IMG/VR virus record: IMGVR_UViG_3300014206_000007
Span: 155,919-219,918 of that record
Reading direction: 5' to 3' (one strand)
Origin: a virus
Taxonomy: Duplodnaviria > Caudoviricetes
Length of the DNA: 64,000 nucleotides
Shown one piece after another: positions 6,611-64,000 of this stretch. Position numbers and translations under genes: made by a program. The stretch's first letter is position 1. Each line of letters opens with the position of its first letter. The notes under the pieces are model-generated. The model was not told the origin of the DNA, searched no databases, and saw only the letters and a program-made list of their open reading frames with translations.

Positions 6611-8347
6611 CTATCGATTTTGTATTTGGAATATTTTACTTAATGCATTTGATAAGCTATCAGTAATTCCCCTAAATTCATTAGCCGGAATATCAGTAAA
6701 TTTATTTTTGATGGCTGCTGTAGCAATATCAATTTTTGCATTTAAATTATTCATCTTTAAATCAACTCCACATAATGTACCTAGATATTCAACTAACGCA
6801 GTATTCTGCAATGCCAAGAATGGTTTTGCTGTTGACGATACCATTAGCTGTGAATATAATGGAGTTATATCAAAAGTTACTTCAAATTCCGTTGGAATTC
6901 CATGTACTGTCCATGATGTATTGTCTGGGCCACCTCTAACAATATTCATATTTGTGATTATTGCTAAGTCTGAATTAAACCATCCTTTTTGGAAGGCTCT
7001 TACAATAAATGGATAGGTGTACATATTATTCGATAGTTGCTTTGGTAAGGATAAAGCTAATAAGTGCATTATTGGAACCATGCATCTTAAGAAAATAGAT
7101 AATTTATTACCATATAATGATGTAAATTTCAAACTACATGACATAGATTTTGAATAATTTACACCATCAACCATTTGTGGAAATACTAATCTTCCACCTT
7201 TAAAATAGTTTTTAGTTAAACCCATAAAACTCTTTATAAATCCATCGTTTTCTGATCCATTAAAAATTGATTGTAAATCATTTTCTAACGCTGAATCAGT
7301 TATTGAACCTATTGGTCCGCCGAATAAGAATTCAAGATTTCTGGCTACGCTATTTAAAGATGAATTGTTAATAATTTCTTCCAATTGTGATGCTGTAGTA
7401 TCGGTAGATATATTTTCATTAACACTAGTACCTTGATTTGTTACAAAGAAGTGCACATATGAATTATCTCCAACAGCACTACTTACTAATCTATCATAAG
7501 CACCTTTCATATCACCAAATACTGAATTTGAATTAGTAGCTGATGCCTTTTCAGGCTCTAACCAATAATCATAATTAAAGTTTTTAAGTTTCTGTGTTCC
7601 ATATGGAATTTTCTCATCACCGATTCCCATTAATATAGCCATCATTCTACATAAGTAGTTAACTACATTCATATATTCTTTTCGGTTTTGTTTAAATTCA
7701 TACAATTTACCATTTAATACGTTACTATCATTATCACTTAAAATCTTAGATTTTAATGCTGAATCTCCAGTTGTTATTCCTAATACTCTTTCATAGAATG
7801 CATTTTTCTGGTCTTTTGAAAAACCTGGTAAATAGTTAACCGTCCCAGGGCATAATGATAGTATACTAGGATTCGATAACATTGAATTTGCAAAAGCTCT
7901 TCCAACACCAGGTGTAATGTCATTGATATATTGAATATCGACATTCATATTAAATTGTGGTGGACATCCAAAAGCTCTTATATATCTATAAAACAATGTT
8001 TTGTATCCTGCCGTATTGACAGTTGTTTCAACAATAGTTTTACCAGTATCATCTATTGTATCATAATTTTCACTATAATCAATTTGATCTGGTTCTGCAT
8101 ATCCATATGCAGGTGGTTGAGATGTTGATGGAGGTGGAGTGCTTTCAGTAACTTTTGTTAGATAAACTCCAGAACACCACCCATTAACGGGAGATGTAAT
8201 ATGTATCCATCCATTTTTCGTTTCATTATTTTCACTTCGTAATGTAGTATTATACGGGAATGCTGAACCTGCAAGTCCATAAGAAACTCCTGGTCCAGAC
8301 CTTATATTTAATGCGCCACTGGCGTTTACTTTATATACAGTACTCAT
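6611..8347 (-). CDS. SH3b-domain virion/baseplate protein
   Basis: N-terminal ALNIRSGPGVSY..GWIHI..GWCSGVYL (SH3b); remainder resembles jumbo-phage tail/baseplate proteins. Confidence 0.65.
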   Translation of the reverse strand: MSTVYKVNASGALNIRSGPGVSYGLAGSAFPYNTTLRSENNETKNGWIHITSPVNGWCSGVYLTKVTESTPPPSTSQPPAYGYAEPDQIDYSENYDTIDDTGKTIVETTVNTAGYKTLFYRYIRAFGCPPQFNMNVDIQYINDITPGVGRAFANSMLSNPSILSLCPGTVNYLPGFSKDQKNAFYERVLGITTGDSALKSKILSDNDSNVLNGKLYEFKQNRKEYMNVVNYLCRMMAILMGIGDEKIPYGTQKLKNFNYDYWLEPEKASATNSNSVFGDMKGAYDRLVSSAVGDNSYVHFFVTNQGTSVNENISTDTTASQLEEIINNSSLNSVARNLEFLFGGPIGSITDSALENDLQSIFNGSENDGFIKSFMGLTKNYFKGGRLVFPQMVDGVNYSKSMSCSLKFTSLYGNKLSIFLRCMVPIMHLLALSLPKQLSNNMYTYPFIVRAFQKGWFNSDLAIITNMNIVRGGPDNTSWTVHGIPTEFEVTFDITPLYSQLMVSSTAKPFLALQNTALVEYLGTLCGVDLKMNNLNAKIDIATAAIKNKFTDIPANEFRGITDSLSNALSKIFQIQNR

Positions 8348-8433
8348 TTATTTCAACTCCTTTTTACTTAAGAATATTAATAACTTTGTTAATGCTTATT
8401 TAGAGTATTAACAGTATCTTATTAAATTGTAAA

Positions 8434-8443
8434 TATATATTAT
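8434..8443 (+). promoter_or_regulatory. Early-type promoter TATATATTAT driving an ORF-less unit
   Basis: Exact copy of the motif found before accessory operons. Confidence 0.55.
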
Positions 8444-8449
8444 TTTAGT

Positions 8450-8624
8450 AAGAAATAAAATAACACCCCCCTTCACCCCTCGTAATAGGTAAAAGCAGGC
8501 GCAGTAAATAAGCCTAAACAAATTTCCGTTTGGAGTTCCTATTCTCCTCCTTACTATTATAGTCCTAATACCGATAGGTCATAATAGATTTAAAAAGAGA
8601 TTGCATATGCAATCTCTTTTTTTT
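8450..8624 (+). ncRNA. Putative small RNA with C-rich anti-SD tracts
   Basis: Promoter 8434, no ORF, GC-rich stems, ACACCCCCCTTCACCCCTC and TTCTCCTCCTTAC tracts, ends in terminator 8592-8624. Confidence 0.55.
8592..8624. terminator. Bidirectional terminator
   Basis: AAAAAGAGATTGCA-TA-TGCAATCTCTTTTTTTT. Confidence 0.8.
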
Positions 8625-8630
8625 GTTATC

Positions 8631-11600
8631 TTATCTACCTCGTGCAATAAGTTCATGAATTTCTCTTAATGAGAACTGACTCTTATCTGAAGTTGATTGT
8701 TTATTATTAGCTATAATAATTGGTTTTGCTCCCTTAACGGATTTATTATTGTTAAATTCACCATATACAATTGGTGCTTTATCTGGTTTATCTCTCATAA
8801 ATTCAATTCCATCTTTAACTACATCAATTAAAAGATTCAATTTATCTTCAACGCCAGTAGTATTAACTGCGATATCCAACTTATTGATTAAGTCTTCTTT
8901 TCTCAGTCTTCTACTCTGATATGCATCTCCATATAAAACATCTTCATCTTTATCCTTGACACGATTCATAGATGTTATATTGAATTTATTACTCTTATCT
9001 GCTTTAAGCAGATTTTCTTTATCTTTATCTGATATTAATGCTCCATATCCTTCGATAATAGAATTAATGTCATAATTTGCTGGGTTAATGTCTGAACCAT
9101 ATTTCTGATTAGCTCTTACTTCATAATGTAAATGGTTACCAGTACTTTCACCAGTCGTTCCAACATATCCTATTATTTGTCCTTTAGATACTGAGCTATT
9201 TTCTGGTATAGGTGATTTAGAATTCATATGGGCAAATAGATGATGATACCCAATATTATCTTTTATCAAAAGTTTATTACCATAACTATTATCATAGCCA
9301 TTTAAAATTACTCTTCCACTTACTGGTGTTGGTATTGGAGTTCCACCGGATGCTCCAAAATCTATTCCAGTATGTTTACTATATTTTCCAGTAATTGGGT
9401 GTTTCCTCATACCATAATCACTGGTTAATCTTCCTCCTAATGTCTTACTGAACCAATTTTTTATTGATGTATTAGTATTCATCAATGGCTTAGCCTTATT
9501 GGAAATATCAGTAGGTACTTTAGTTCCAGAGGAATTAGTGTTAGTTGCTTTATTTGCTTCTCTAGACGCCAAAACCATTTGTTTAGCATCAGAATAAGAA
9601 ACATTATTTAATTTCATTTGCATTTTGGCTTCTTCGATTATTGCTAGATTATCAATGATACTAGCTGCACCAGATAAATTACCATCTGGTCCGCCTTCAC
9701 CATAAGTGATTCCCATATTAAATCCAGCACTTCTTCTTGGACCATATTGCATTATATCGTATTTAGATAGATTTGATGATTCTATTATTTTATTTAACTT
9801 ACTAGAATATTTACTATCTGTCGCATATCCAGCCGTTTGTAGAGCAGATGTTGCCACTCTATAATTCTTAGTACTTCTTACAGCAGAATATCTTGGACTA
9901 TTCATTAATTTTGCATAGTCTAATATAGAATCCTCAATTGAATCATAATCTCTAAATTTTGCTATTGTGGAATATGTGTTGCCATATCCATCTTCTTCTT
10001 TTGTCAATTTTTCTTGAACTTTTCCAGTCCATCCTGAGCCCGCTTTGATTCCAAATATATTATTACCAATAGAACTTTTACCCCAGCCAGTTTCTAATAT
10101 AGCTTGTGCAATCAATACTGATGGTAGAATGCCATATTTATCTTTAGCTTTTAATGCTCCAGGCAAAATTTTATCAATAAATTTTGAAGAATCTTTACTG
10201 CCAGAATCATCGATTATTGCATCGATATTTATATTTCCGTCTTCGTCTATATACATCCCATTATCATTGAATATTCTAGTGTATGTAGCTCCACCTAATA
10301 AACTATCAATCCAATGTGTTCCAATTGATCCAACTTTACTAAGAATATCAGCGAGTCCGCTTAATCCTGATAATAAACTACTCTTAGGTTTTTGAGTTGG
10401 CTCAGTAGTATTAAATTGAGCTTGATTTTCAATAACCTTTTCGTCTTTATAACTTTTAGCAGAATCCCATATTGATAATGCAGGTAATGATGGTTGGTTT
10501 GGAGTTGATTTGTTTTTATTTGGTAATTGTGCGTTAAGAAAATCCATAGTTGATGGTAATTTTGGTAGACTAGTTTTATATGGAGCGCCAGGTCCATAAT
10601 TAACTTTATCTTTACTATATGACCATCCGTTAGTCATATCCTGTTGAATATTATCTGAATTATATGATTTAATTCTTCCATCAAGTGGATCTTGTATCAT
10701 AACATTACCGTTTGAATCTATTCCAGTAACTGCAACTACATGACCTGCCTTTGTAAATGGCGAGTCCATTTTACCATTACTCTTTCCTGATAATATTACC
10801 GGATTTCCACTTTTTATATTTTGAATTAAATTATTTTTTGATACTTTTGATGATTGAAGTCCTAATTTCCTTGCACCCTCAGTAAATAAATCTTCTTTAC
10901 TACCACCTTTAGCAATATATCCACTATCTTTTGCTAGTTTCGCAACAGTTAATGGGTCGATATCACGATTAGTTGTATTAGATGCTACATATGATAATGC
11001 AGTAGGACCACATCCTCCAGTATTCATTGTACTTCTTTTTCCATTAGGCAATGTACCTAATGAATAGTTAGCCCATCGTGGATCGGATTGTGAAGGTCCA
11101 TAGGATATATTATCTTTCTTATTAGCCATTTGACCATTGCCATAAAGATAATCAAGTCTTCCACTTCCAATATTACCACCAGATGGTGTTTTAAATGCTT
11201 CTTTTACCGATGATCCAAAATTCTTTAATCCGTTCCATGACTTAGTTGCCCATGATGGATTTTTCAAATCTTGGTAAGCTTTAGTCGATAAGTTTGTGCT
11301 ATTAGATGAATTATAGTTTGCGGTTTCTGTATCAAGAATCTGTTGGTTAGCTTTTAATTCCTTAACCATATCAGCACTACTAACACCGTTTATTTTTGAT
11401 AACTTTTCATATACAGTAGTTGCCATATCAAGTTTCAAATCATTTTTACTAATCTCAGAAGTTACCTCAAGTAGTATATCAAATATTGGTCCGATACCTA
11501 AACCGAGAATAGTTTTAAATGTAGATGAAATAGCAATCATTAACCAGTCAACACTGTCTTCACCAACTCCAAATAATTTATCAGCTTCAAATGCTCCTGA

Positions 11601-14600
11601 TATAAGGTCATATCCTGAGAATACTAAAGTCGCTAAACCAATAGTTGCTACACCAGTTCCAACTTTAGCAGTTGCTTCAACTGTTGCATTTGCTATTTTT
11701 GATGCGGCTTTTACAAAGAATGTATCTGAACCTTTAGCAAGTGTAGTTAATAATTTATCTTTCATTGCTTTTATAAATACAGTGAATCCACTTGGGACTC
11801 TATTGAATAATTTTACTATAGTTTTATTTGTACTTAATTCTGCCAATTTCTTAAATACTTCATCAACAAAACTTAGTACTTTCTTCTTAGAAGTTGCAGC
11901 TAATGCATCAGATGCATACATTGATTTCAATGCAATCGTTTCAGCAACATCTTTAACTGCTTTAGTTCCTTTAGATGTGTTAAGTGTAGTCCTTAATAGA
12001 TTAGCAGGAGTTTCAAACATTCTTGAACCTAATTTTGCACCCTCTTTAGCTCCAGATGCTAAATTAACATTCTTCAATCCCGGAATAAATCCTCCAACTG
12101 TTCCAGCAGCTCCTCCACTAACTCCACCTAAAATTGAACCCATCATACGGGCATTCTTTGGATTTGCAATAGAATTTCTGAATGTATTTAATGACCCAGT
12201 TATTAATCCCTCATTCTGTACCGTTTCAGGCTTACCCGTTTTTTCATTAAATATTATTCGACTTCCTCCAATAACTTGCTTTCCATTTTTATATGTCTTT
12301 ACATTAGTTCCATTCTTTCTAGCTTCGGCTGCCTCTTTACCATCAACTTCTTCGACTTTAGAACCAGCTATACTATCATATAACTTTTCTCCACTACCTT
12401 TTACAATCGCAACTCCAGCTTTAATTAAAGATGGAATTATTTCGACGATTAATCCAGCACTAGATTCGATAATTCCTGGTAAATACTTTCCAGCGGCACT
12501 TGATATTGCACCAATAGCATCTGGAATCTTATCAGAGAGAGTTGGTAATACAGATTCAGTCATAAAATCAACTATTTTTGTATATAAGTTTGGTAGCTTA
12601 TTCTTTAATAATGTGATTCCACCACCAGCTAATAATAATTTTGTTATATTATCAGTATTACTAAACCAATCAAATACAGAGCCAAACATACCACCAAATC
12701 CACTAGAGATTTTCGTTATAGATGCATTTTCAGAATCATCTGTAATAATTTTAGCTTCATCCTTTTTAGTATCAACTTTACTTGAAATTAAATCAGTGAA
12801 TTTAGCTTTTAACGATTTAGATTTTTCTGTTTCTACAGCTTCTCGTTGTTTTCTTGAATCTGATTGATTCTTTTTAAATATTGAATTAAATAGCGATTTA
12901 ATTCCTTTATTATTTATAGTCGACATCTCATCTTCAGAGATATTTGCACTATCAATAATTTCAGCGTCTATTGGTTCTCCAATATTTTTATCGCGTTTCT
13001 TTCTATCATATTTTCCACCAAATAATACTTCATTTAATGAATCCAATCTATCTAGAATATTAACTAATAATGAAGATTTTTTTGGTTGGTTTTTAGCCGT
13101 ACCCAATTCTCCGATAATATCAGAATAATCTGCGTCAATTATATTGGAATCGGTTGAATTTCTTTTAATATTTGAATTTGATAAGGCTCTAATCATAATT
13201 TCATTTGAATTTGGAATGATAGTTGAATTATCATCTGAAACAATAGTTGCTTCATCAGGGCTATCTGTCCATCTACTTTTATTTTTATTATACCAAGATT
13301 TTAAATCTCCTCTAGTATATTCCTCAGATTGTCTATAATTATCCCATTCAAAATTTGGTACATCAGAATATTTATTAATGTCTTCATCCGTCATAGTACC
13401 ACTATTTTTATTAATGTTATATTTCTTAAATGCGGAGTTTAATGTTCTTTCTTTTCTAGCTTTCTTCTTCTTTGAATAGTCTTTATGAATTTGATCTTCT
13501 GCCATTTTGTACATAGCATCTCTCAAATCATCAACCATACCAGTCATACGATCTTGGTATTCAGAAGTTTTCTCTCTAGCATGTTTCTGTTCTAATGACT
13601 CAAGCATTAATGGAGATTTTATAGATGATCCCATCCCACTAGGCATTTCAGCAGATGATTTAGATTTCTCAAATCTATCTTTCCAGTCATCCTTATTAAA
13701 GATTAAATCTTTTAAATTCTTTTCAGTCGATATACTATCTGTAGATAAACCAGCTTTTACTAATTCATTCTTTCTTCTCTTGATCATTTCATCAGTCCAA
13801 AAGACTTCCTTATACTGGTCTTCTTTAGCATATTTCTTTCTTAATGCATCTACACGCTTCCACTTATTTTGCTCGTCTCTATCTTTCTTCTGGGCTTCTT
13901 TATTTTCTCGTTTATCTTTTCTTACATCTCTCCAACGTAAACTATTACGTCCTTCTAAACCCATACGTTCATCATAACTTTCACGAGCAGCATCTAATGT
14001 ATCTTTATCGCTTACTACTCTTTTAATATCTTTAGCTCTTCCAAATAATTTTTGGAGATTTCCAAATATATTATCAGAATATATTCCTTCTTCATCTTCT
14101 TTGCCCCATTTAGCAGATAACACATCTTTAGATGCTCCAGCATAATTTTTCCAGAATTTCATTTCTTCCTTAGTTCTAGTTGGAGCTGCTATCATAGATC
14201 CTAATCTTACTGCCGCAACTATTGGAGTAGATGCCGCTTTTAGGCCAAAGCTTGTTGCTTTAATGGTCATTTTTCCGATATTTCCTAATAATGATGTAAA
14301 CGGATTAAATATTTTCTGCATTGTCGCTTTAAATATAGAAGTAATCCCATCAGTTATTGTATCGAATTTTTCTTTTACAAAATCGGATATATCATCCTTT
14401 AATCCACCTAATGCATCAACTAATGGTCCGAATGCTAATCTAAATGGATATTCAATTTTATCTTTTGCCCAATATGCAAAGTTTGTCATTTCATCATGTA
14501 CTGTTTGCTTAACTGGGTCAAATATATTTACTACTAAACTATTACGTACTTCATTTAATAAACCATTTTTGAGTCTCTTTCCTGTAGGTTTACCATTTTC

Positions 14601-17600
14601 ATCTAATTCTTCAGTTCCAAATAAAAACTGTTTAAATCTATCAGTTTGAGAAGCTATTCCAAGTCCTAACCCAACTAGACCCATTCCAACTGGTCCGCCC
14701 ATTGATAAAGCTGAGCCAACTAGACCCATTTTACTTAAAGTTAATCCTGTTAATGCTCCAATTCCTAAACCTTTTAAACCAGACTTTAGATATGGCTTAG
14801 ACTTTGCAAATCCTGCTGAGAATTTATTCATTCCTTTAGAAAGAACCCCGCCAACACGTTTATTGTCTTCATTCTTTTCACCGAATAAAATACTTTTTAT
14901 CTTATCATTATTTAAGAATAATCCCGTACCCATGCCTAATAATGCACCACCAATTGGTCCACCTGGTAATAATGCATTAGCAACAACGCCAAATGGTCCT
15001 GTTGGTCCACCAAATACGACGTGTTTCATTGCTCCTAATGTTCCGGCTCCAATTATAACTGGAAGATTCTTTTTAAATGAATCTTGTAATCTTTGTGATA
15101 TTAATCCTCCAACTTTCTTTCCATCTTTTTCACTATATTTACCAAACATGAATTCTTGGAAAGTTTTTGATTGGGATAATATCGATAATCCCATTCCTGC
15201 AATAGCTCCACCGACTGGTCCAGTTGGTAAGAATAAGCCTCCTAATAATCCTAATGACCCTCCAGATAATAATGATACTCCTGCTCCAGCTATACCCGCT
15301 GTCAACATCCTTGGAAGATTCTTTTTAAACTTTTTAAGAAAACTTTCTTCTTTTTCTTCTGGAGTTTCTTTGTCGTCACCAAATAAAGCTACAGCAAATC
15401 TGGTTCCACTCTCTTTTATATGATCCGTTGTATTGATAACTGCTTCTTTAACAGTATCATGTACTTCTTCGTTTGTTATAACCATTGGTAATAATGATGC
15501 ATTAGTAGTATTTTTAATTACAGCTTCATTAGAATTCTCTTTATTATTAGAAGTATTCGTTGCTGTATTAGTATTTTCTACTGTTGCTTCATCATTTTTT
15601 TCTTTCTTTTTGGTTATATCCATCCAAGAAAACATACTCTTATATATGTCATTTTCTTTATATTCATCGGATTTAAAAACATACTTCATCGTGTTATCAA
15701 ATGTAGTATTATAACCTGATTTTATATTACTCAAAACACTATCTGGATTTGCTTTATGTTTCTTACCTTGCCTATTAGTATATTCCTTTCCAGTAAATGA
15801 GTATTTCAAATAATCAAAACTATCAAGTAGCATTTTTGTTAATCCGGAAAATATCCCATCTTTTTCATTAAATAAATAGGAACGAATCTTATTTCCAAGC
15901 TTTTTAACATTTTCGTTTTCCCAAAATTTATTAAAGAATCCAGTTTTGCCAAATAATTTAGAAACTATACCCGAGAAAGAACTAAACATTCCTAACACTG
16001 ATGCCTTAATAGAATCAGACATCTTAGTTCCAGCATTAATAAATTTTCCCAGTCTACTATCATCTGCCGAAGCAGTTTCTTTATCAGTTTCAAATTTTGC
16101 TTCTGAATTTTCGGAAATAACTTTTTTATTCATTGCTAAATCAGCATCGATATCTTTCGATGATTTTTTCATTATAGAATCATAATTTTCATTATTAAAC
16201 TTTGATTCTTGTTTCTTTAAGAAATCGTTAGAAATTCCTTGATTTCCTATTCCAGAATTAGTTAATCTAGATGATGCAGGAGCAATCTTAGCTGTATTTG
16301 CTAACGGCGGTCCACGTTTTGATCTTCTTCTAGCTGCTAATTCATCTGGAGCTTTTTCATCCACTGCAACTTGCCTTTTAGAGGTAGACGCTTTTACTGT
16401 ATTATTATCTACTAATGTAGTGATATCAACATCTGGAAGTTCAGCTTCTATATTTCTGGTACCTTGTGGTTTATTATATCCCATCATTTTACTGAAAAGA
16501 TAATCATCAGCTTTATTAACTTTCTTTTCTACTGTATCTCCAAACTTTTCAACTCCGCTAATTCTAAATCTATCTAAAAATTTCTTAGATTTAGTCTTAA
16601 CTAGTTGAGAATAGAGTTCTTTCTTTACAATATCTTCACCAATACTCATATCGAAAGGGTTATCTCTCATAGCTTTATTATACTTCTTCATCAATTGAGG
16701 AGTTATTTTAAATTTACTATCAAATTCTGGGAAAGATTGAGCAATATCTAAAATATCCTGCTTAATACTACTAGGAGATGATGATGTTCCTGTTCCACCA
16801 TATCCAGAATTTTCAAATAAATCAATTTTTCTCTCTTTATTAAGTTTAGAAGAATTTTCATTATTGAATAGATTTCGATATACTGATCCTTCAATAGTTC
16901 TTTCAAGGGATTTTGATTGTTCATTCATCGCCTTAATGGAGCTCTGGAGATTCTTTTCCATAGACATAATTACATCTTTAAATTCCTCATTAGGTAAAAC
17001 ATTTTGAAGGATTCCAGATGCTTGCGTTGTATAACTCTTATAGTCTAAAGTACCACTAAGACGTTGATTTAATAGTTCATTCAATTGCTGCTGGATATCT
17101 TTTATTTCATTTTCCTGAACCATATTATCTTCCAAATAAGTAGTCATTTTATTCAATGAATCATAAAACTCCATTTGTACTGTAGAGTCTCTATCTTCAT
17201 AAAATTGCTTTTCGATTGAACTCTTTGAACGAAATACACCAGCGTCCATATCATAATAGCGTTTTTCTTGCTTAGTTAGAACTGATTCTATACTAGCAAG
17301 ATATGAAGGAATAACTTCAACTAATGAACGTTGCGCTTCACCATTCCATGATAATGCTTCTTTATGGAAATTTCCCATATTAACATTTTTCTGATTTGGA
17401 CGTTTAGCTCCAAGAAGTTCACCCATGAATCTCATAATGCTACTTTTACTATAATCATTACCTATGTCACCAACTCTATATAATGCATTTTCAAAATATG
17501 CCTCTAGATTTTTATCCGCTTTTTCTAATGATTTCGTTATTCCTTTTGGAATTGTCTGTTTTATTCCAGCTTCCAATAGTATTTTAGGTAAACGGATAGG

Positions 17601-18500
17601 AGTATTATCTCCAAATGCACTTTGCATATCATACATCATTTTTACCATATTAAACATAGAGCCAACTATAGTATTATTAAAATTCTTTTTAATGAAGTCT
17701 TTATAACCTTTAGGATTAAATCCTCCACTAATAAATCCTAGCGGGTCTTCAGGAAAACTCATATCACTATTTGGGTCCATACTCTTTTCAAGTCTATTTA
17801 AAGTTTCCAAATTCTTATCAAAATATTCCAACATTGCCTGATTAACTACACTAGTATTTTGATTTTGAAACTCCATTAGACCAATAATATTCTGATTAAT
17901 AGAAGTTAAATTAATATTAATTGCCATAATACCAGAATTTATTTTATTGATACCAAACATTGCAATGTTGGCTTGCTTTAATGATGCCATTTGGGCACTT
18001 TTAATTGTCGAAGATGAAAGCACATTAGTCATTTCTTTAATGCTATCTACGGTAGCATTACTTCCAACTAATACTGCCTTTCCAATAACCTTATCACCTT
18101 CGGTTATAGATTGCGTATCATCAGAGCCACTTTCATCAGAATCATCTGATGATGTGTCTGAATCATAATCATTATTATAGTAATCTATATCACTAGATAT
18201 CTCGTATAAATCTGATTGATTTTTTTGAAGAGAGAAATTCCCTGAACGGATATCTTCCATTGCTGATGCAATTACATCCTTTGCTTGTCTTCCGATTGAT
18301 GATGAATCAAGCGATCTATTTTGGGAATTGACTAGTGTCTTAGTATTTCTTATAAACGATATCGTATCTTTTGCTGCATCTGCAGTTGATATAGCTGTCG
18401 AACTAAGATTTGGGGTTATACTTTTCAATACATTTAACGATGAGAAAGCTATCGATTTAGATGCATTTTTAACCCAAATATTTGCTTTAGGCTTATTCAT
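8631..18500 (-). CDS. Giant tape-measure-like virion protein with C39-like peptidase, glucosaminidase and M23 peptidase domains
   Basis: 3289 aa; Gly-rich hydrophobic repeats (GGPIGGALLG); QSDPRW..GCGPTA..HVVAV..DP (C39-like, ~11095-10620); AQAILETGWG..NNIFGIK..YATD (glucosaminidase, ~10190-9750); HTGIDF..HLHYE (M23, ~9440-9080). Confidence 0.85.
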   Translation of the reverse strand: MNKPKANIWVKNASKSIAFSSLNVLKSITPNLSSTAISTADAAKDTISFIRNTKTLVNSQNRSLDSSSIGRQAKDVIASAMEDIRSGNFSLQKNQSDLYEISSDIDYYNNDYDSDTSSDDSDESGSDDTQSITEGDKVIGKAVLVGSNATVDSIKEMTNVLSSSTIKSAQMASLKQANIAMFGINKINSGIMAININLTSINQNIIGLMEFQNQNTSVVNQAMLEYFDKNLETLNRLEKSMDPNSDMSFPEDPLGFISGGFNPKGYKDFIKKNFNNTIVGSMFNMVKMMYDMQSAFGDNTPIRLPKILLEAGIKQTIPKGITKSLEKADKNLEAYFENALYRVGDIGNDYSKSSIMRFMGELLGAKRPNQKNVNMGNFHKEALSWNGEAQRSLVEVIPSYLASIESVLTKQEKRYYDMDAGVFRSKSSIEKQFYEDRDSTVQMEFYDSLNKMTTYLEDNMVQENEIKDIQQQLNELLNQRLSGTLDYKSYTTQASGILQNVLPNEEFKDVIMSMEKNLQSSIKAMNEQSKSLERTIEGSVYRNLFNNENSSKLNKERKIDLFENSGYGGTGTSSSPSSIKQDILDIAQSFPEFDSKFKITPQLMKKYNKAMRDNPFDMSIGEDIVKKELYSQLVKTKSKKFLDRFRISGVEKFGDTVEKKVNKADDYLFSKMMGYNKPQGTRNIEAELPDVDITTLVDNNTVKASTSKRQVAVDEKAPDELAARRRSKRGPPLANTAKIAPASSRLTNSGIGNQGISNDFLKKQESKFNNENYDSIMKKSSKDIDADLAMNKKVISENSEAKFETDKETASADDSRLGKFINAGTKMSDSIKASVLGMFSSFSGIVSKLFGKTGFFNKFWENENVKKLGNKIRSYLFNEKDGIFSGLTKMLLDSFDYLKYSFTGKEYTNRQGKKHKANPDSVLSNIKSGYNTTFDNTMKYVFKSDEYKENDIYKSMFSWMDITKKKEKNDEATVENTNTATNTSNNKENSNEAVIKNTTNASLLPMVITNEEVHDTVKEAVINTTDHIKESGTRFAVALFGDDKETPEEKEESFLKKFKKNLPRMLTAGIAGAGVSLLSGGSLGLLGGLFLPTGPVGGAIAGMGLSILSQSKTFQEFMFGKYSEKDGKKVGGLISQRLQDSFKKNLPVIIGAGTLGAMKHVVFGGPTGPFGVVANALLPGGPIGGALLGMGTGLFLNNDKIKSILFGEKNEDNKRVGGVLSKGMNKFSAGFAKSKPYLKSGLKGLGIGALTGLTLSKMGLVGSALSMGGPVGMGLVGLGLGIASQTDRFKQFLFGTEELDENGKPTGKRLKNGLLNEVRNSLVVNIFDPVKQTVHDEMTNFAYWAKDKIEYPFRLAFGPLVDALGGLKDDISDFVKEKFDTITDGITSIFKATMQKIFNPFTSLLGNIGKMTIKATSFGLKAASTPIVAAVRLGSMIAAPTRTKEEMKFWKNYAGASKDVLSAKWGKEDEEGIYSDNIFGNLQKLFGRAKDIKRVVSDKDTLDAARESYDERMGLEGRNSLRWRDVRKDKRENKEAQKKDRDEQNKWKRVDALRKKYAKEDQYKEVFWTDEMIKRRKNELVKAGLSTDSISTEKNLKDLIFNKDDWKDRFEKSKSSAEMPSGMGSSIKSPLMLESLEQKHAREKTSEYQDRMTGMVDDLRDAMYKMAEDQIHKDYSKKKKARKERTLNSAFKKYNINKNSGTMTDEDINKYSDVPNFEWDNYRQSEEYTRGDLKSWYNKNKSRWTDSPDEATIVSDDNSTIIPNSNEIMIRALSNSNIKRNSTDSNIIDADYSDIIGELGTAKNQPKKSSLLVNILDRLDSLNEVLFGGKYDRKKRDKNIGEPIDAEIIDSANISEDEMSTINNKGIKSLFNSIFKKNQSDSRKQREAVETEKSKSLKAKFTDLISSKVDTKKDEAKIITDDSENASITKISSGFGGMFGSVFDWFSNTDNITKLLLAGGGITLLKNKLPNLYTKIVDFMTESVLPTLSDKIPDAIGAISSAAGKYLPGIIESSAGLIVEIIPSLIKAGVAIVKGSGEKLYDSIAGSKVEEVDGKEAAEARKNGTNVKTYKNGKQVIGGSRIIFNEKTGKPETVQNEGLITGSLNTFRNSIANPKNARMMGSILGGVSGGAAGTVGGFIPGLKNVNLASGAKEGAKLGSRMFETPANLLRTTLNTSKGTKAVKDVAETIALKSMYASDALAATSKKKVLSFVDEVFKKLAELSTNKTIVKLFNRVPSGFTVFIKAMKDKLLTTLAKGSDTFFVKAASKIANATVEATAKVGTGVATIGLATLVFSGYDLISGAFEADKLFGVGEDSVDWLMIAISSTFKTILGLGIGPIFDILLEVTSEISKNDLKLDMATTVYEKLSKINGVSSADMVKELKANQQILDTETANYNSSNSTNLSTKAYQDLKNPSWATKSWNGLKNFGSSVKEAFKTPSGGNIGSGRLDYLYGNGQMANKKDNISYGPSQSDPRWANYSLGTLPNGKRSTMNTGGCGPTALSYVASNTTNRDIDPLTVAKLAKDSGYIAKGGSKEDLFTEGARKLGLQSSKVSKNNLIQNIKSGNPVILSGKSNGKMDSPFTKAGHVVAVTGIDSNGNVMIQDPLDGRIKSYNSDNIQQDMTNGWSYSKDKVNYGPGAPYKTSLPKLPSTMDFLNAQLPNKNKSTPNQPSLPALSIWDSAKSYKDEKVIENQAQFNTTEPTQKPKSSLLSGLSGLADILSKVGSIGTHWIDSLLGGATYTRIFNDNGMYIDEDGNINIDAIIDDSGSKDSSKFIDKILPGALKAKDKYGILPSVLIAQAILETGWGKSSIGNNIFGIKAGSGWTGKVQEKLTKEEDGYGNTYSTIAKFRDYDSIEDSILDYAKLMNSPRYSAVRSTKNYRVATSALQTAGYATDSKYSSKLNKIIESSNLSKYDIMQYGPRRSAGFNMGITYGEGGPDGNLSGAASIIDNLAIIEEAKMQMKLNNVSYSDAKQMVLASREANKATNTNSSGTKVPTDISNKAKPLMNTNTSIKNWFSKTLGGRLTSDYGMRKHPITGKYSKHTGIDFGASGGTPIPTPVSGRVILNGYDNSYGNKLLIKDNIGYHHLFAHMNSKSPIPENSSVSKGQIIGYVGTTGESTGNHLHYEVRANQKYGSDINPANYDINSIIEGYGALISDKDKENLLKADKSNKFNITSMNRVKDKDEDVLYGDAYQSRRLRKEDLINKLDIAVNTTGVEDKLNLLIDVVKDGIEFMRDKPDKAPIVYGEFNNNKSVKGAKPIIIANNKQSTSDKSQFSLREIHELIARGR

Positions 18501-37036: not shown

Positions 37037-37200
37037 AAAAAATCTCAAAATGTGGGACACAAGTTGAACACCCGACATCCTGTCTTAGCGACAGGGTGGA
37101 TGTTCAACTTGTGTCCAAAGGTCTCAAACAAAAACAGATGACTATTGGCGAGCTGCCAAAGGGGACGTTAGTCAATTACATTTCTGTTTATCGTATTTAT
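37037..37200 (-). ncRNA. Putative structured small RNA (two long hairpins)
   Basis: GC-rich ORF-free island; 16-bp perfect stem 37055-37070/37101-37116 plus inner stem; second hairpin 37132-37189; TATATTAT at 37212-37219 on minus strand. Confidence 0.5.
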
Positions 37201-37239
37201 TTTTTTATTTAATAATATAATTAAAGTATTACTCTCATT

Positions 37240-42142: not shown

Positions 42143-42280
42143 CGTTGATAGTAGGATTTGAACCTACACGGGACTTTTACATCTTCCATATTTTCATACA
42201 GCCATAGTTAATTCTTTGACCAGCCAATTCTCATATTACATGAGGACGTCAGCAGTGTCTTCCAGTTTCACCATATCAAC
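42143..42280 (-). tRNA. tRNA-Leu-like RNA with expanded anticodon and variable arms (138 nt)
   Basis: Acceptor GTTGATA/TATCAAC; Leu-type D arm GTG-AAACTGGAAGA-CAC; T arm GTAGG-TTCAAAT-CCTAC; oversized central region; no encoded CCA. Confidence 0.65.
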
Positions 42281-45889: not shown

Positions 45890-45899
45890 ATAATATATA
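45890..45899 (-). promoter_or_regulatory. Early-type promoter TATATATTAT
   Basis: Exact motif heading the kinase operon. Confidence 0.6.
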
Positions 45900-46006
45900 T
45901 TTATAAAGAATATTTATCAGTATATCTATACGCTAATATGTACTGATGATTATAGAATATAAAACAGTATACTCTTATACCTATAATATATTGACATAAA
46001 AAGATA

Positions 46007-62579: not shown

Positions 62580-63875
62580 TTATATTTTTGGTTTATCCAT
62601 ACTATGATTATCAATATCATTAATCAATGAATCATTTAATTTAAGATTATTGATATAAATAATAAGTCTATAAGTAGATGTCTTCTCTAATTTAAATACA
62701 TCAATATTCAAATTATTCCAATCTGCTATAAAATCCGTACCTTCAACAAGTTCAACATTATCTTTTAAAATGATAGCTTTTATAAACGTAGAGATTGGTA
62801 TATTTAATTGAGTATTTTCTCTAATAACATTTATTGCTGCACTTTCAAATAATGGTGAAATATCTAAGGTATCTTTTGTCTTTCCAACTTCGTAATCAAC
62901 ATTAAATATTGAGGAAGTGTATAATCTAAATCCATCTAAATATGATGGATATCTATTATGTATATTCTCAATAGTGTATATAGGAATAAATTCTGTTGTG
63001 CCGGAATATGGTTCATATACAGCCAAATCAAACTGTACTTTATTTTGAATATTTGTATCTCCTTCTAATATAAATAGTCCCGGTAAATTAAATTCGACCG
63101 AAATTCTAAAGTTAATATTATAGGCATCACCCATCATATTTTTCATATTACCTTCATCAAATGATAAATCATATAATGTCATAATTGTATCATGATTATA
63201 ATACATGAAAAATTCATCTCTTCCAGAAGCATTCTTCATTTTATAAGTAATAGGATAATTAGATCGGTTATTTAAATACTGTAATAATATTGGAAGCATA
63301 TTCTGAGTTTTATCAGTTATATCCAATTCTGTTATTTTTCCAATATATTCAATCATTGACCTTGGAATCATCGATTCCAATGAAGAACGATGAATAAATG
63401 AACGATCCCATACCATTTGATTTACCATAAATTTATATAAATCTAATTGCTGATGCAAAGTCGCTAATGTAATAGTTACATCAAATTCTATTCTATCTCT
63501 ATTCATTTTATACTTTAGATTAAATTCTTTCTCCGGATCTTTTAATATTGGAAATAGATGTCGTTTATCAATACCATATTCAATATTATCATAGTTTTTA
63601 GTTAATGGAATATTATTCAAGAACGCATCTGAATCATTAGGTTGATATGATGGTTTAATGATTAAATATGGTTTTCTTCTTTTCTTTATCTCATTCATAT
63701 TATTATTTCCGCCGAATTGACGATATAGATTACGATATGCAATTTCGGATGAAATATTTGTATATTTAAAAAATTCATATGGAAATTTTGCTAGTATATA
63801 TTCTCTAACCGAACAACTTATATTACCATAAGTGGTACTACTAGATGATGATGCAATAGAAAATATTTTTTCCAT
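62580..63875 (-). CDS. Putative virion structural protein
   Basis: 431 aa, preceded by AACA-N6-TA (63910-63921); TYGN..KPYLIIKP..ITYKMK pattern of jumbo-phage structural proteins. Confidence 0.55.
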   Translation of the reverse strand: MEKIFSIASSSSSTTYGNISCSVREYILAKFPYEFFKYTNISSEIAYRNLYRQFGGNNNMNEIKKRRKPYLIIKPSYQPNDSDAFLNNIPLTKNYDNIEYGIDKRHLFPILKDPEKEFNLKYKMNRDRIEFDVTITLATLHQQLDLYKFMVNQMVWDRSFIHRSSLESMIPRSMIEYIGKITELDITDKTQNMLPILLQYLNNRSNYPITYKMKNASGRDEFFMYYNHDTIMTLYDLSFDEGNMKNMMGDAYNINFRISVEFNLPGLFILEGDTNIQNKVQFDLAVYEPYSGTTEFIPIYTIENIHNRYPSYLDGFRLYTSSIFNVDYEVGKTKDTLDISPLFESAAINVIRENTQLNIPISTFIKAIILKDNVELVEGTDFIADWNNLNIDVFKLEKTSTYRLIIYINNLKLNDSLINDIDNHSMDKPKI

Positions 63876-63921: not shown

Positions 63922-64000
63922 TTTATAATCAATATTTATAGAAAATATATATTATTAATGTAATATAAACGTAACTGGAGGAGTATGATATGAATAAAAA

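Follow-up and report, generated by a model that had tools for sequence, protein, structure and literature searches.

Small RNAs of Firmicutes, such as RsaE/RoxS and Staphylococcus aureus RNAIII, carry unpaired C-rich motifs that are complementary to G-rich ribosome-binding sites (RBSs). On the side of the phages, early transcription in the jumbo phage AR9 has been mapped by dRNA-seq, which defined the promoter used by the injected virion RNA polymerase as AAATATATATTAT-N6-G(+1) (PMC5312081). The nucleotide at which transcription starts after the N6 spacer is mostly G, with A in three promoters; some single mismatches in the promoter are tolerated; and 41 of the 41 mapped early starts were assigned to protein genes, with UTRs of 26 to 340 nt (PMC5312081). 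RNA-seq of AR9 further revealed strong termination at predicted terminators. For phiKZ, dRNA-seq led to the prediction of one 75-nt sRNA, which Northern blotting did not confirm, and according to a suggestion of the same study, sRNAs of phiKZ, if they exist, would be late (PMC8244752).

Here we describe a locus that, like the phage sRNAs discussed in general terms before (PMC8244752; review PMC12197685), is a candidate non-coding regulator on a phage genome but, unlike what was suggested for phiKZ, is predicted to be transcribed early, by the virion polymerase. It resembles RsaE/RoxS and RNAIII in that it would yield a short terminated RNA with C-rich motifs complementary to G-rich RBSs and differs from them in having no Rfam match and in being phage encoded and confined to one phage lineage. 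The phage sequence comes from metagenomes; the virus record comprises 219,918 bp with direct terminal repeats and a GC content of 27.9%, and the window analyzed here is its final 64 kb (positions are those of the window unless marked as genome positions). The phage and AR9 are not closely related, and the unit described here is ORF-less, unlike the early units of AR9, yet both phages share the same 13-base early consensus, 6-nt spacer, and purine start (Lavysh et al. 2017, PMC5312081), as well as AACA-N6-TA late promoters and operon ends marked by intrinsic terminators. AR9 possesses two multisubunit RNA polymerase gene sets, and Pfam models recovered two beta-like loci and one beta'-like locus in the present genome.

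The locus occupies a 283-nt intergenic gap (8348-8630) that separates two minus-strand virion genes. The downstream gene (6611..8347) encodes a 578-aa virion structural protein with an SH3-like domain at its N terminus; it is distantly related to proteins of Bacillus, Staphylococcus, and phiKZ-like jumbo phages, and its homologues are common across metagenomes. A single-protein IMG/VR scan retrieved no relatives of this protein, whereas alignment-based scans did find relatives. The upstream ORF (8631..18500, minus strand) codes for 3,289 aa, with C39-like cysteine peptidase, glucosaminidase, and M23 peptidase domains in the C-terminal 800 aa, and its product resembles a giant lysin of the tail or tape-measure-like type. 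A late-promoter-like AACA-N7-TA sequence for the 578-aa gene is found at 8380..8392 on the minus strand, divergent from the early promoter described below. Its N7 spacing is atypical, the spacing enriched genome-wide being N6 (61 intergenic sites with the AR9 late motif AACA-N6-TA versus 7 to 21 at other spacings), and the AACA at this position is kept in the related loci L005, L006, L007, L009, L013, L019, L023, and L027. Most relatives with a gap of at least ~80 nt display the order stop codon, terminator hairpin, AACA-N6/7-TA, RBS, and gene; an AR9-type late promoter thus seems, on the evidence of these motifs, to be common to a large uncultured phage family represented in wastewater, bioreactor, gut, and other metagenomes. 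Among the Logan contigs from related phages, three stop exactly at the palindromic terminator before the 578-aa homologue (L006:1-22 and L007:1-18), probably because the assembly broke at the inverted repeat and not for a biological reason. The sole Rfam match in the window is a tRNA at 42143-42280 on the minus strand (30.5 bits, just over the threshold); it covers 138 nt, and the tRNA-like gene may therefore contain an insertion.

An earlier note on this DNA had placed an early-type promoter at 8434-8443, and we found this segment to be the 3' part of an exact copy of the AR9-type 13-mer AAATATATATTAT at 8431-8443 on the plus strand. The exact 13-mer occurs 12 times in the genome, against about 1 occurrence expected under Markov models of orders 1 to 5. 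One copy sits in the terminal repeat, leaving 11 that are unique; 10 of these are intergenic, although intergenic DNA makes up only ~10% of the genome and 0.2 to 0.5 intergenic copies would be expected by chance, and most are followed, 25 to 60 nt downstream, by an RBS and ATG in the same orientation. A purine is found 7 nt after the motif at every one of the 11 exact sites (A in 8 and G in 3), and at the present site it is A8450, the start of transcription predicted from the sequence. On the basis of these observations, we judge that the AR9-type 13-mer is clearly in use in this phage genome. A looser 16-mer promoter pattern with 3 mismatches showed no enrichment (20 versus 20.6 sites), which leaves the exact or near-exact motif as the only informative one. 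At this locus, the 13-mer is unchanged in the strains of all four metagenome runs considered below, while the adjacent coding sequence differs by ~5%. Further exact 13-mers in the window are found at 45890-45902 (minus strand) and 63943-63955 (plus strand), the latter lying within the terminal repeat and being identical to the copy at genome position 66. Elsewhere in the window, a GC-rich intergenic stretch at 37037-37219 (minus strand) displays two long hairpins and contains CCCCUUUG; upstream of it, the promoter-like TATATTAT departs from the full 13-mer at four positions, which makes an early promoter doubtful there.

Transcription from A8450 would run toward a bidirectional intrinsic terminator at 8592..8629, with a 13-bp stem and a 4-nt loop; its U tail is eight nucleotides long on the plus strand (U8) and five on the minus strand (U5). 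The strong terminator previously proposed was recovered in place, at 8592-8621 with a T8 run. It also ends the minus-strand 3,289-aa gene and is conserved in the related phage locus L005, and a terminator scan of the 1-kb region yielded 3 sites against 0.2 in shuffled sequences. Between promoter and terminator, neither strand has an RBS-led ORF, as the earlier note had said, and the indels that distinguish strains would shift the frame of any ORF on both strands, indicating that the element is non-coding. Together, the A8450 start, the lack of an ORF, and the terminator predict a plus-strand RNA of ~172 to 178 nt, extending from 8450 to ~8625. The claim that the transcribed body is GC rich also stands: the inserted segment (see below) has a GC content of 40% (C, 26%; G, 14%) against an intergenic mean of 25%, a value that exceeds the mean by ~2 standard deviations and ranks among the highest 1.6% for intergenic windows. 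Given its position between the terminator and the late-promoter-like site, late minus-strand transcription should largely bypass the element.

Two other exact early promoters lead into comparable stretches. The first unit (L038:55-454; genome ~63154-63553, minus strand) starts at 63553 and consists of the exact 13-mer, ~375 nt in which no ORF is led by an RBS, and a strong 13-bp terminator with T8; its fold has a z score of -1.6. The other (L039:110-374; genome ~136709-136973, minus strand), starting at 136973, consists of the exact 13-mer, ~250 ORF-less nt, and an 11-bp long-range stem with T8; it shares the TTTAGT spacer of 8444-8449, and its fold has a z score of -2.6. Neither unit has an Rfam match. 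Thus, 3 of the 11 exact early promoters lead into ORF-less terminated stretches, a recurrence that speaks for a class of such units and against an accident. The promoter, the +1 purine, the missing ORF, the terminator, and the two sister units provide good support, at the level of sequence logic, for the early, discrete, non-coding plus-strand unit envisaged in the earlier note, and we consider it probable that a discrete early plus-strand RNA is made. Separately, a ~40-nt motif with GACGGCCCCCGA is repeated 218 nt apart at genome positions 97301 and 97519, among the most GC-rich intergenic regions.

Comparison with related phages revealed that most of the predicted RNA is an insertion. We fetched 26 related loci, 21 of which have the same gene junction; the gap at that junction measures 7 to 154 nt in these relatives, against 283 nt here, and in none of the 21 is the insert present or a good opposite-strand early motif found in the gap. 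In an alignment with L005, the closest relative (88% identity of the 578-aa protein), the terminator matches well, as does the AT-rich region of the promoter, while ~130 nt, corresponding to 8462..8591, are missing. The homologous promoter place in L005 reads CAATCTATATTAT, with 2 mismatches, and faces the terminator with nothing between them, suggesting that the promoter may be older than the insert and have no connection with it. We considered the L005 homologue as a dead promoter and dropped this reading, since AR9 tolerates some single mismatches (PMC5312081). Sequence searches likewise recovered no counterpart of the element: when 50,697 phage records were queried with the region by blastn, none matched it; nothing of significance emerged from four related phage records of IMG/VR searched at the DNA level; and in the complete genome and all the loci that we had fetched, blastn-short and nhmmer found the single-copy element and nothing else. 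Neither a 23-mer across the second C-rich tract in JGI metagenome contigs nor a gapped pattern of both tracts in IMG/VR produced a match. The one exact match of the first C-rich tract in IMG/VR (L004) is a GC-rich unrelated contig with only a 19-mer in common, and occurrences of the two-tract pattern in GTDB, in a Planctomycetia MAG and a Saccharibacteria MAG, have no similarity beyond the pattern; we attribute these to chance. The absence of the element from the 21 relatives means that there is no deep conservation or covariation, and the unit is, on these comparisons, a credible candidate for a lineage-specific early non-coding RNA.

Variation within the lineage was followed by comparing contigs from four independent metagenome runs, three of them labelled wastewater, over 8000-9000. 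The contigs fall into five sequence variants; the insert is present in all of them, and no deletion joint was seen. Among the sequencing runs, four that bear an RNA-Seq label are probably DNA. The promoter, the CUCCUCC motif at 8544-8550, and both stems of a hairpin at 8554-8587 are unchanged in every variant. In contrast to this invariance, the A-rich 5' leader at 8453..8462 (plus strand), consisting of (AAATA)x2, differs in copy number among strains, an extra AAATA after 8452 being found in contigs from all four runs. The first C-rich tract shows an expansion of C6 to C8, a C>T change at 8466, and the loss of one T at 8472, with its C-richness kept. The variant X3a is the most diverged, with six substitutions in the central domain (~10% divergence). 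Hence, of the conservation in relatives to which the earlier note had looked, the part concerning related phages failed, whereas the element is kept among close strains with CUCCUCC invariant and the first tract C rich throughout.

The predicted RNA has, downstream of its A-rich leader and first C-rich tract, a central domain at 8484..8543 (plus strand) that would be closed by an AAUAGG/CCUAUU stem (8484-8489 with 8538-8543) and whose interior varies among strains. The earlier note had drawn this domain as a three-way junction. In the reference, this structure has an ensemble probability of ~1% and lies 2.8 kcal/mol above the minimum free energy fold, and it is not the predicted fold in 4 of the 5 variants. 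The closing stem itself has a probability of 0.01 in the reference versus 0.8 to 0.99 in X3a. Two X3a substitutions account for this difference: 8537 T>A converts a U.U mismatch to a U-A pair, and 8492 A>T converts A.G to U.G, in which a pair is possible on the plus strand only. With both changes, the closing stem grows from 6 to 9 bp and becomes dominant. The hairpin at 8554..8587 (plus strand), with 7+1+4 bp and a 7-nt loop, was found where it had been described and appears in every predicted fold; its substitutions, at 8570 and 8572, both lie in the loop, leaving the stem free of changes. With the terminator included, both strands trivially fold better than shuffled sequences. For the body without the terminator, the plus strand folds at -20.5 kcal/mol (z about -1) and the minus strand at -37.2 kcal/mol (z of -2.6). 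Most of the advantage of the minus strand is due to a hairpin at 8502-8463, whose 15 bp include six G.U pairs and which is followed by a U-rich tail; all four strain substitutions within that hairpin break pairs. The stability of the minus strand falls in three variants, while that of the plus strand is kept or improved. These variants constitute moderate evidence in favor of the plus strand, moderate because the events are few and the stem was examined after the fact.

Both C-rich tracts of the earlier note lie on the plus strand at the positions it gave. The first, ACACCCCCCUUCACCCCUC (8463..8481), is predicted to be single stranded, with an unpaired probability of 0.76 to 0.81 in the reference and of 0.76 to 0.98 across the variant models, in agreement with what had been proposed. 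The second, UUCUCCUCCUUAC (8542..8554), contains the core CUCCUCC (8544-8550), which resembles the anti-Shine-Dalgarno (anti-SD) sequence of the 16S rRNA, as does CUCCUCCUU. Its description as unpaired holds only in part: in the reference, the tract is open only about half of the time (0.42 to 0.54), with CUCCUCC (0.42 unpaired) half sequestered by GGAG at 8532-8535, whereas CUCCUCC opens when the central stem forms, as in X3a (0.93). C6 runs are rare in the genome (4 on the plus strand and 0 on the minus strand), and ~20 phage genes have GGGGG-type SDs. We compared the duplexes of each tract with 216 predicted phage initiation regions against shuffled controls. For the first tract, pairing with phage SD regions did not exceed what composition alone provides (-9.1 versus -9.0 for shuffled sequences); for the second, it was only marginally better (-10.9 versus -9.6 +/- 0.6, ~2 standard deviations). 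None of the 216 regions stood out as a target for either tract, so that this comparison does not favor the anti-SD idea, and the SD complementarity seen here is what any RBS complement would show. On the minus strand, both tracts read as ordinary RBS-like sequences cooriented with the genes. Rfam models recovered nothing at the gathering score and, at E values of up to 10, only a weak minus-strand PyrR-leader match and terminator-driven noise; the known C-rich sRNA families of the RsaE/RoxS and RNAIII type gave no match at either level. ARAGORN and Rfam detected no tRNA or tmRNA in 8300-8700. As judged from complementarity, translation silencing through the anti-SD tracts is plausible.

Bringing these features together, we propose that the injected virion RNA polymerase would start at A8450, 7 nt past the exact 13-mer, and transcribe ~175 nt up to the bidirectional terminator, the body of the RNA being the 130-nt C-rich insertion confined to this phage lineage. 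The RNA would be laid out as an A-rich 5' leader, an open C-rich tract, a variable central domain, a CUCCUCC linker, a hairpin, and the terminator hairpin. The open C-rich tract would pair with G-rich SD regions of host or phage mRNAs, the CUCCUCC linker would join this pairing when the central stem forms, and the pairing would lower translation of the target mRNAs early in infection. The reading that an early RNA is produced, is subject to selection, and works through SD pairing is one we advance tentatively, and four others have to be weighed against it.

The element could be passenger DNA, that is, a young foreign or filler insertion between a preexisting early promoter and terminator that is transcribed early with no selected function, its anti-SD look being a by-product of C-rich composition. 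Its absence from all 21 relatives together with the lack of any homologue in searches, the near-consensus motif of L005 facing the terminator without an insert, the nonsignificant plus-strand fold, the ~10% divergence of the X3a central domain with the varying length of the first tract, and the want of a preferred target among the phage initiation regions all fit such an origin. Neutral filler, however, sits less easily with the retention of the element in all five variants with promoter, CUCCUCC, and hairpin stems intact, with two X3a substitutions that both add pairs extending one stem, with a GC content of 40% that persists against a 25% GC intergenic background, or with the two similar ORF-less early units in the genome, which suggest a class and not an accident. 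We regard this reading as unlikely. A real early sRNA could also act by another route, as a decoy or sponge for a host or phage RNA-binding protein or nuclease, which might for example involve mimicry of the 3' end of the 16S rRNA by CCUCCUU, or by pairing with one specific host RNA. The same transcription-unit evidence that serves the anti-SD explanation serves this one; moreover, CUCCUCCUU, which is like the 16S anti-SD end, is the sole invariant tract, and the first tract has no general advantage in SD pairing. The idea is nevertheless purely speculative, no protein-binding motif or known family having been detected, and we consider it unlikely.

The remaining two readings dispense with a functional plus-strand RNA. 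If the 13-mer were a chance copy or inactive here, no plus-strand transcript would be made, and the gap would be an enlarged spacer. Chance alone would place about one exact copy in the genome, the copy at this locus is the sole exact intergenic 13-mer facing opposite-strand genes, and the loose motif is unenriched; but 10 intergenic copies are seen where chance would give 0.2 to 0.5, the +1 purine and T-rich spacer match those of other sites (TTTAGT recurring in the 136973 unit), and the motif is invariant among strains despite the ~5% difference in nearby coding sequence, so that we find this reading decidedly unlikely. A role for the minus strand, as a terminator- or attenuator-like leader between the 3,289-aa and 578-aa genes or as a decayed gene start, appears to us highly improbable. 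It would draw on the stronger fold of that strand (-37.2 versus -20.5 kcal/mol; z of -2.6), on the 15-bp G-rich hairpin at 8502-8463 followed by a U-rich run, and on the tracts being RBS-like (AAGGAGG and GAGGGGUGA) in the direction of the genes. It would also draw on a weak full-length PyrR-leader-like match (E = 0.34), the minus strand being similar to the PyrR attenuator leader (RF00515) in its succession of a hairpin, a second hairpin, and a terminator-like hairpin with a U-rich tail. Yet little transcription should cross an element placed between a strong terminator and a conserved late-promoter-like site; the four hairpin substitutions all break pairs, and stability falls in three variants; 6 of the 15 pairs are G.U; and neither RBS-like tract is followed by a start codon, with indels breaking a 37-aa frame. 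A PyrR binding site on this strand was rejected, as the match reaches 23.1 bits against a gathering threshold of 54 and has no pyr gene context.

Returning to the SD-pairing RNA, the element is young and lineage specific and is not an established regulator, and the weight of the case is limited by a phage known from metagenomes, by an unconserved element, and by a mechanism read from complementarity. The candidate is directly testable, because its start, its end, and its candidate functional tracts are all defined. To our knowledge, a host-takeover or timing device of this kind is undescribed for virulent Firmicute phages. More broadly, AR9-type jumbo phages might carry an early non-coding RNA layer made by the virion polymerase, with three units here and the present one as a translation silencer that would present two anti-SD tracts to host or phage mRNAs in the first minutes of infection, a generalization for which we give low odds at present. 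Provided that the RNA is made, it would represent an sRNA synthesized by a multisubunit RNA polymerase that is packaged in the virion, and it would show that a phage can acquire a new regulator in a single step, through an insertion placed between an early promoter and a terminator already present.
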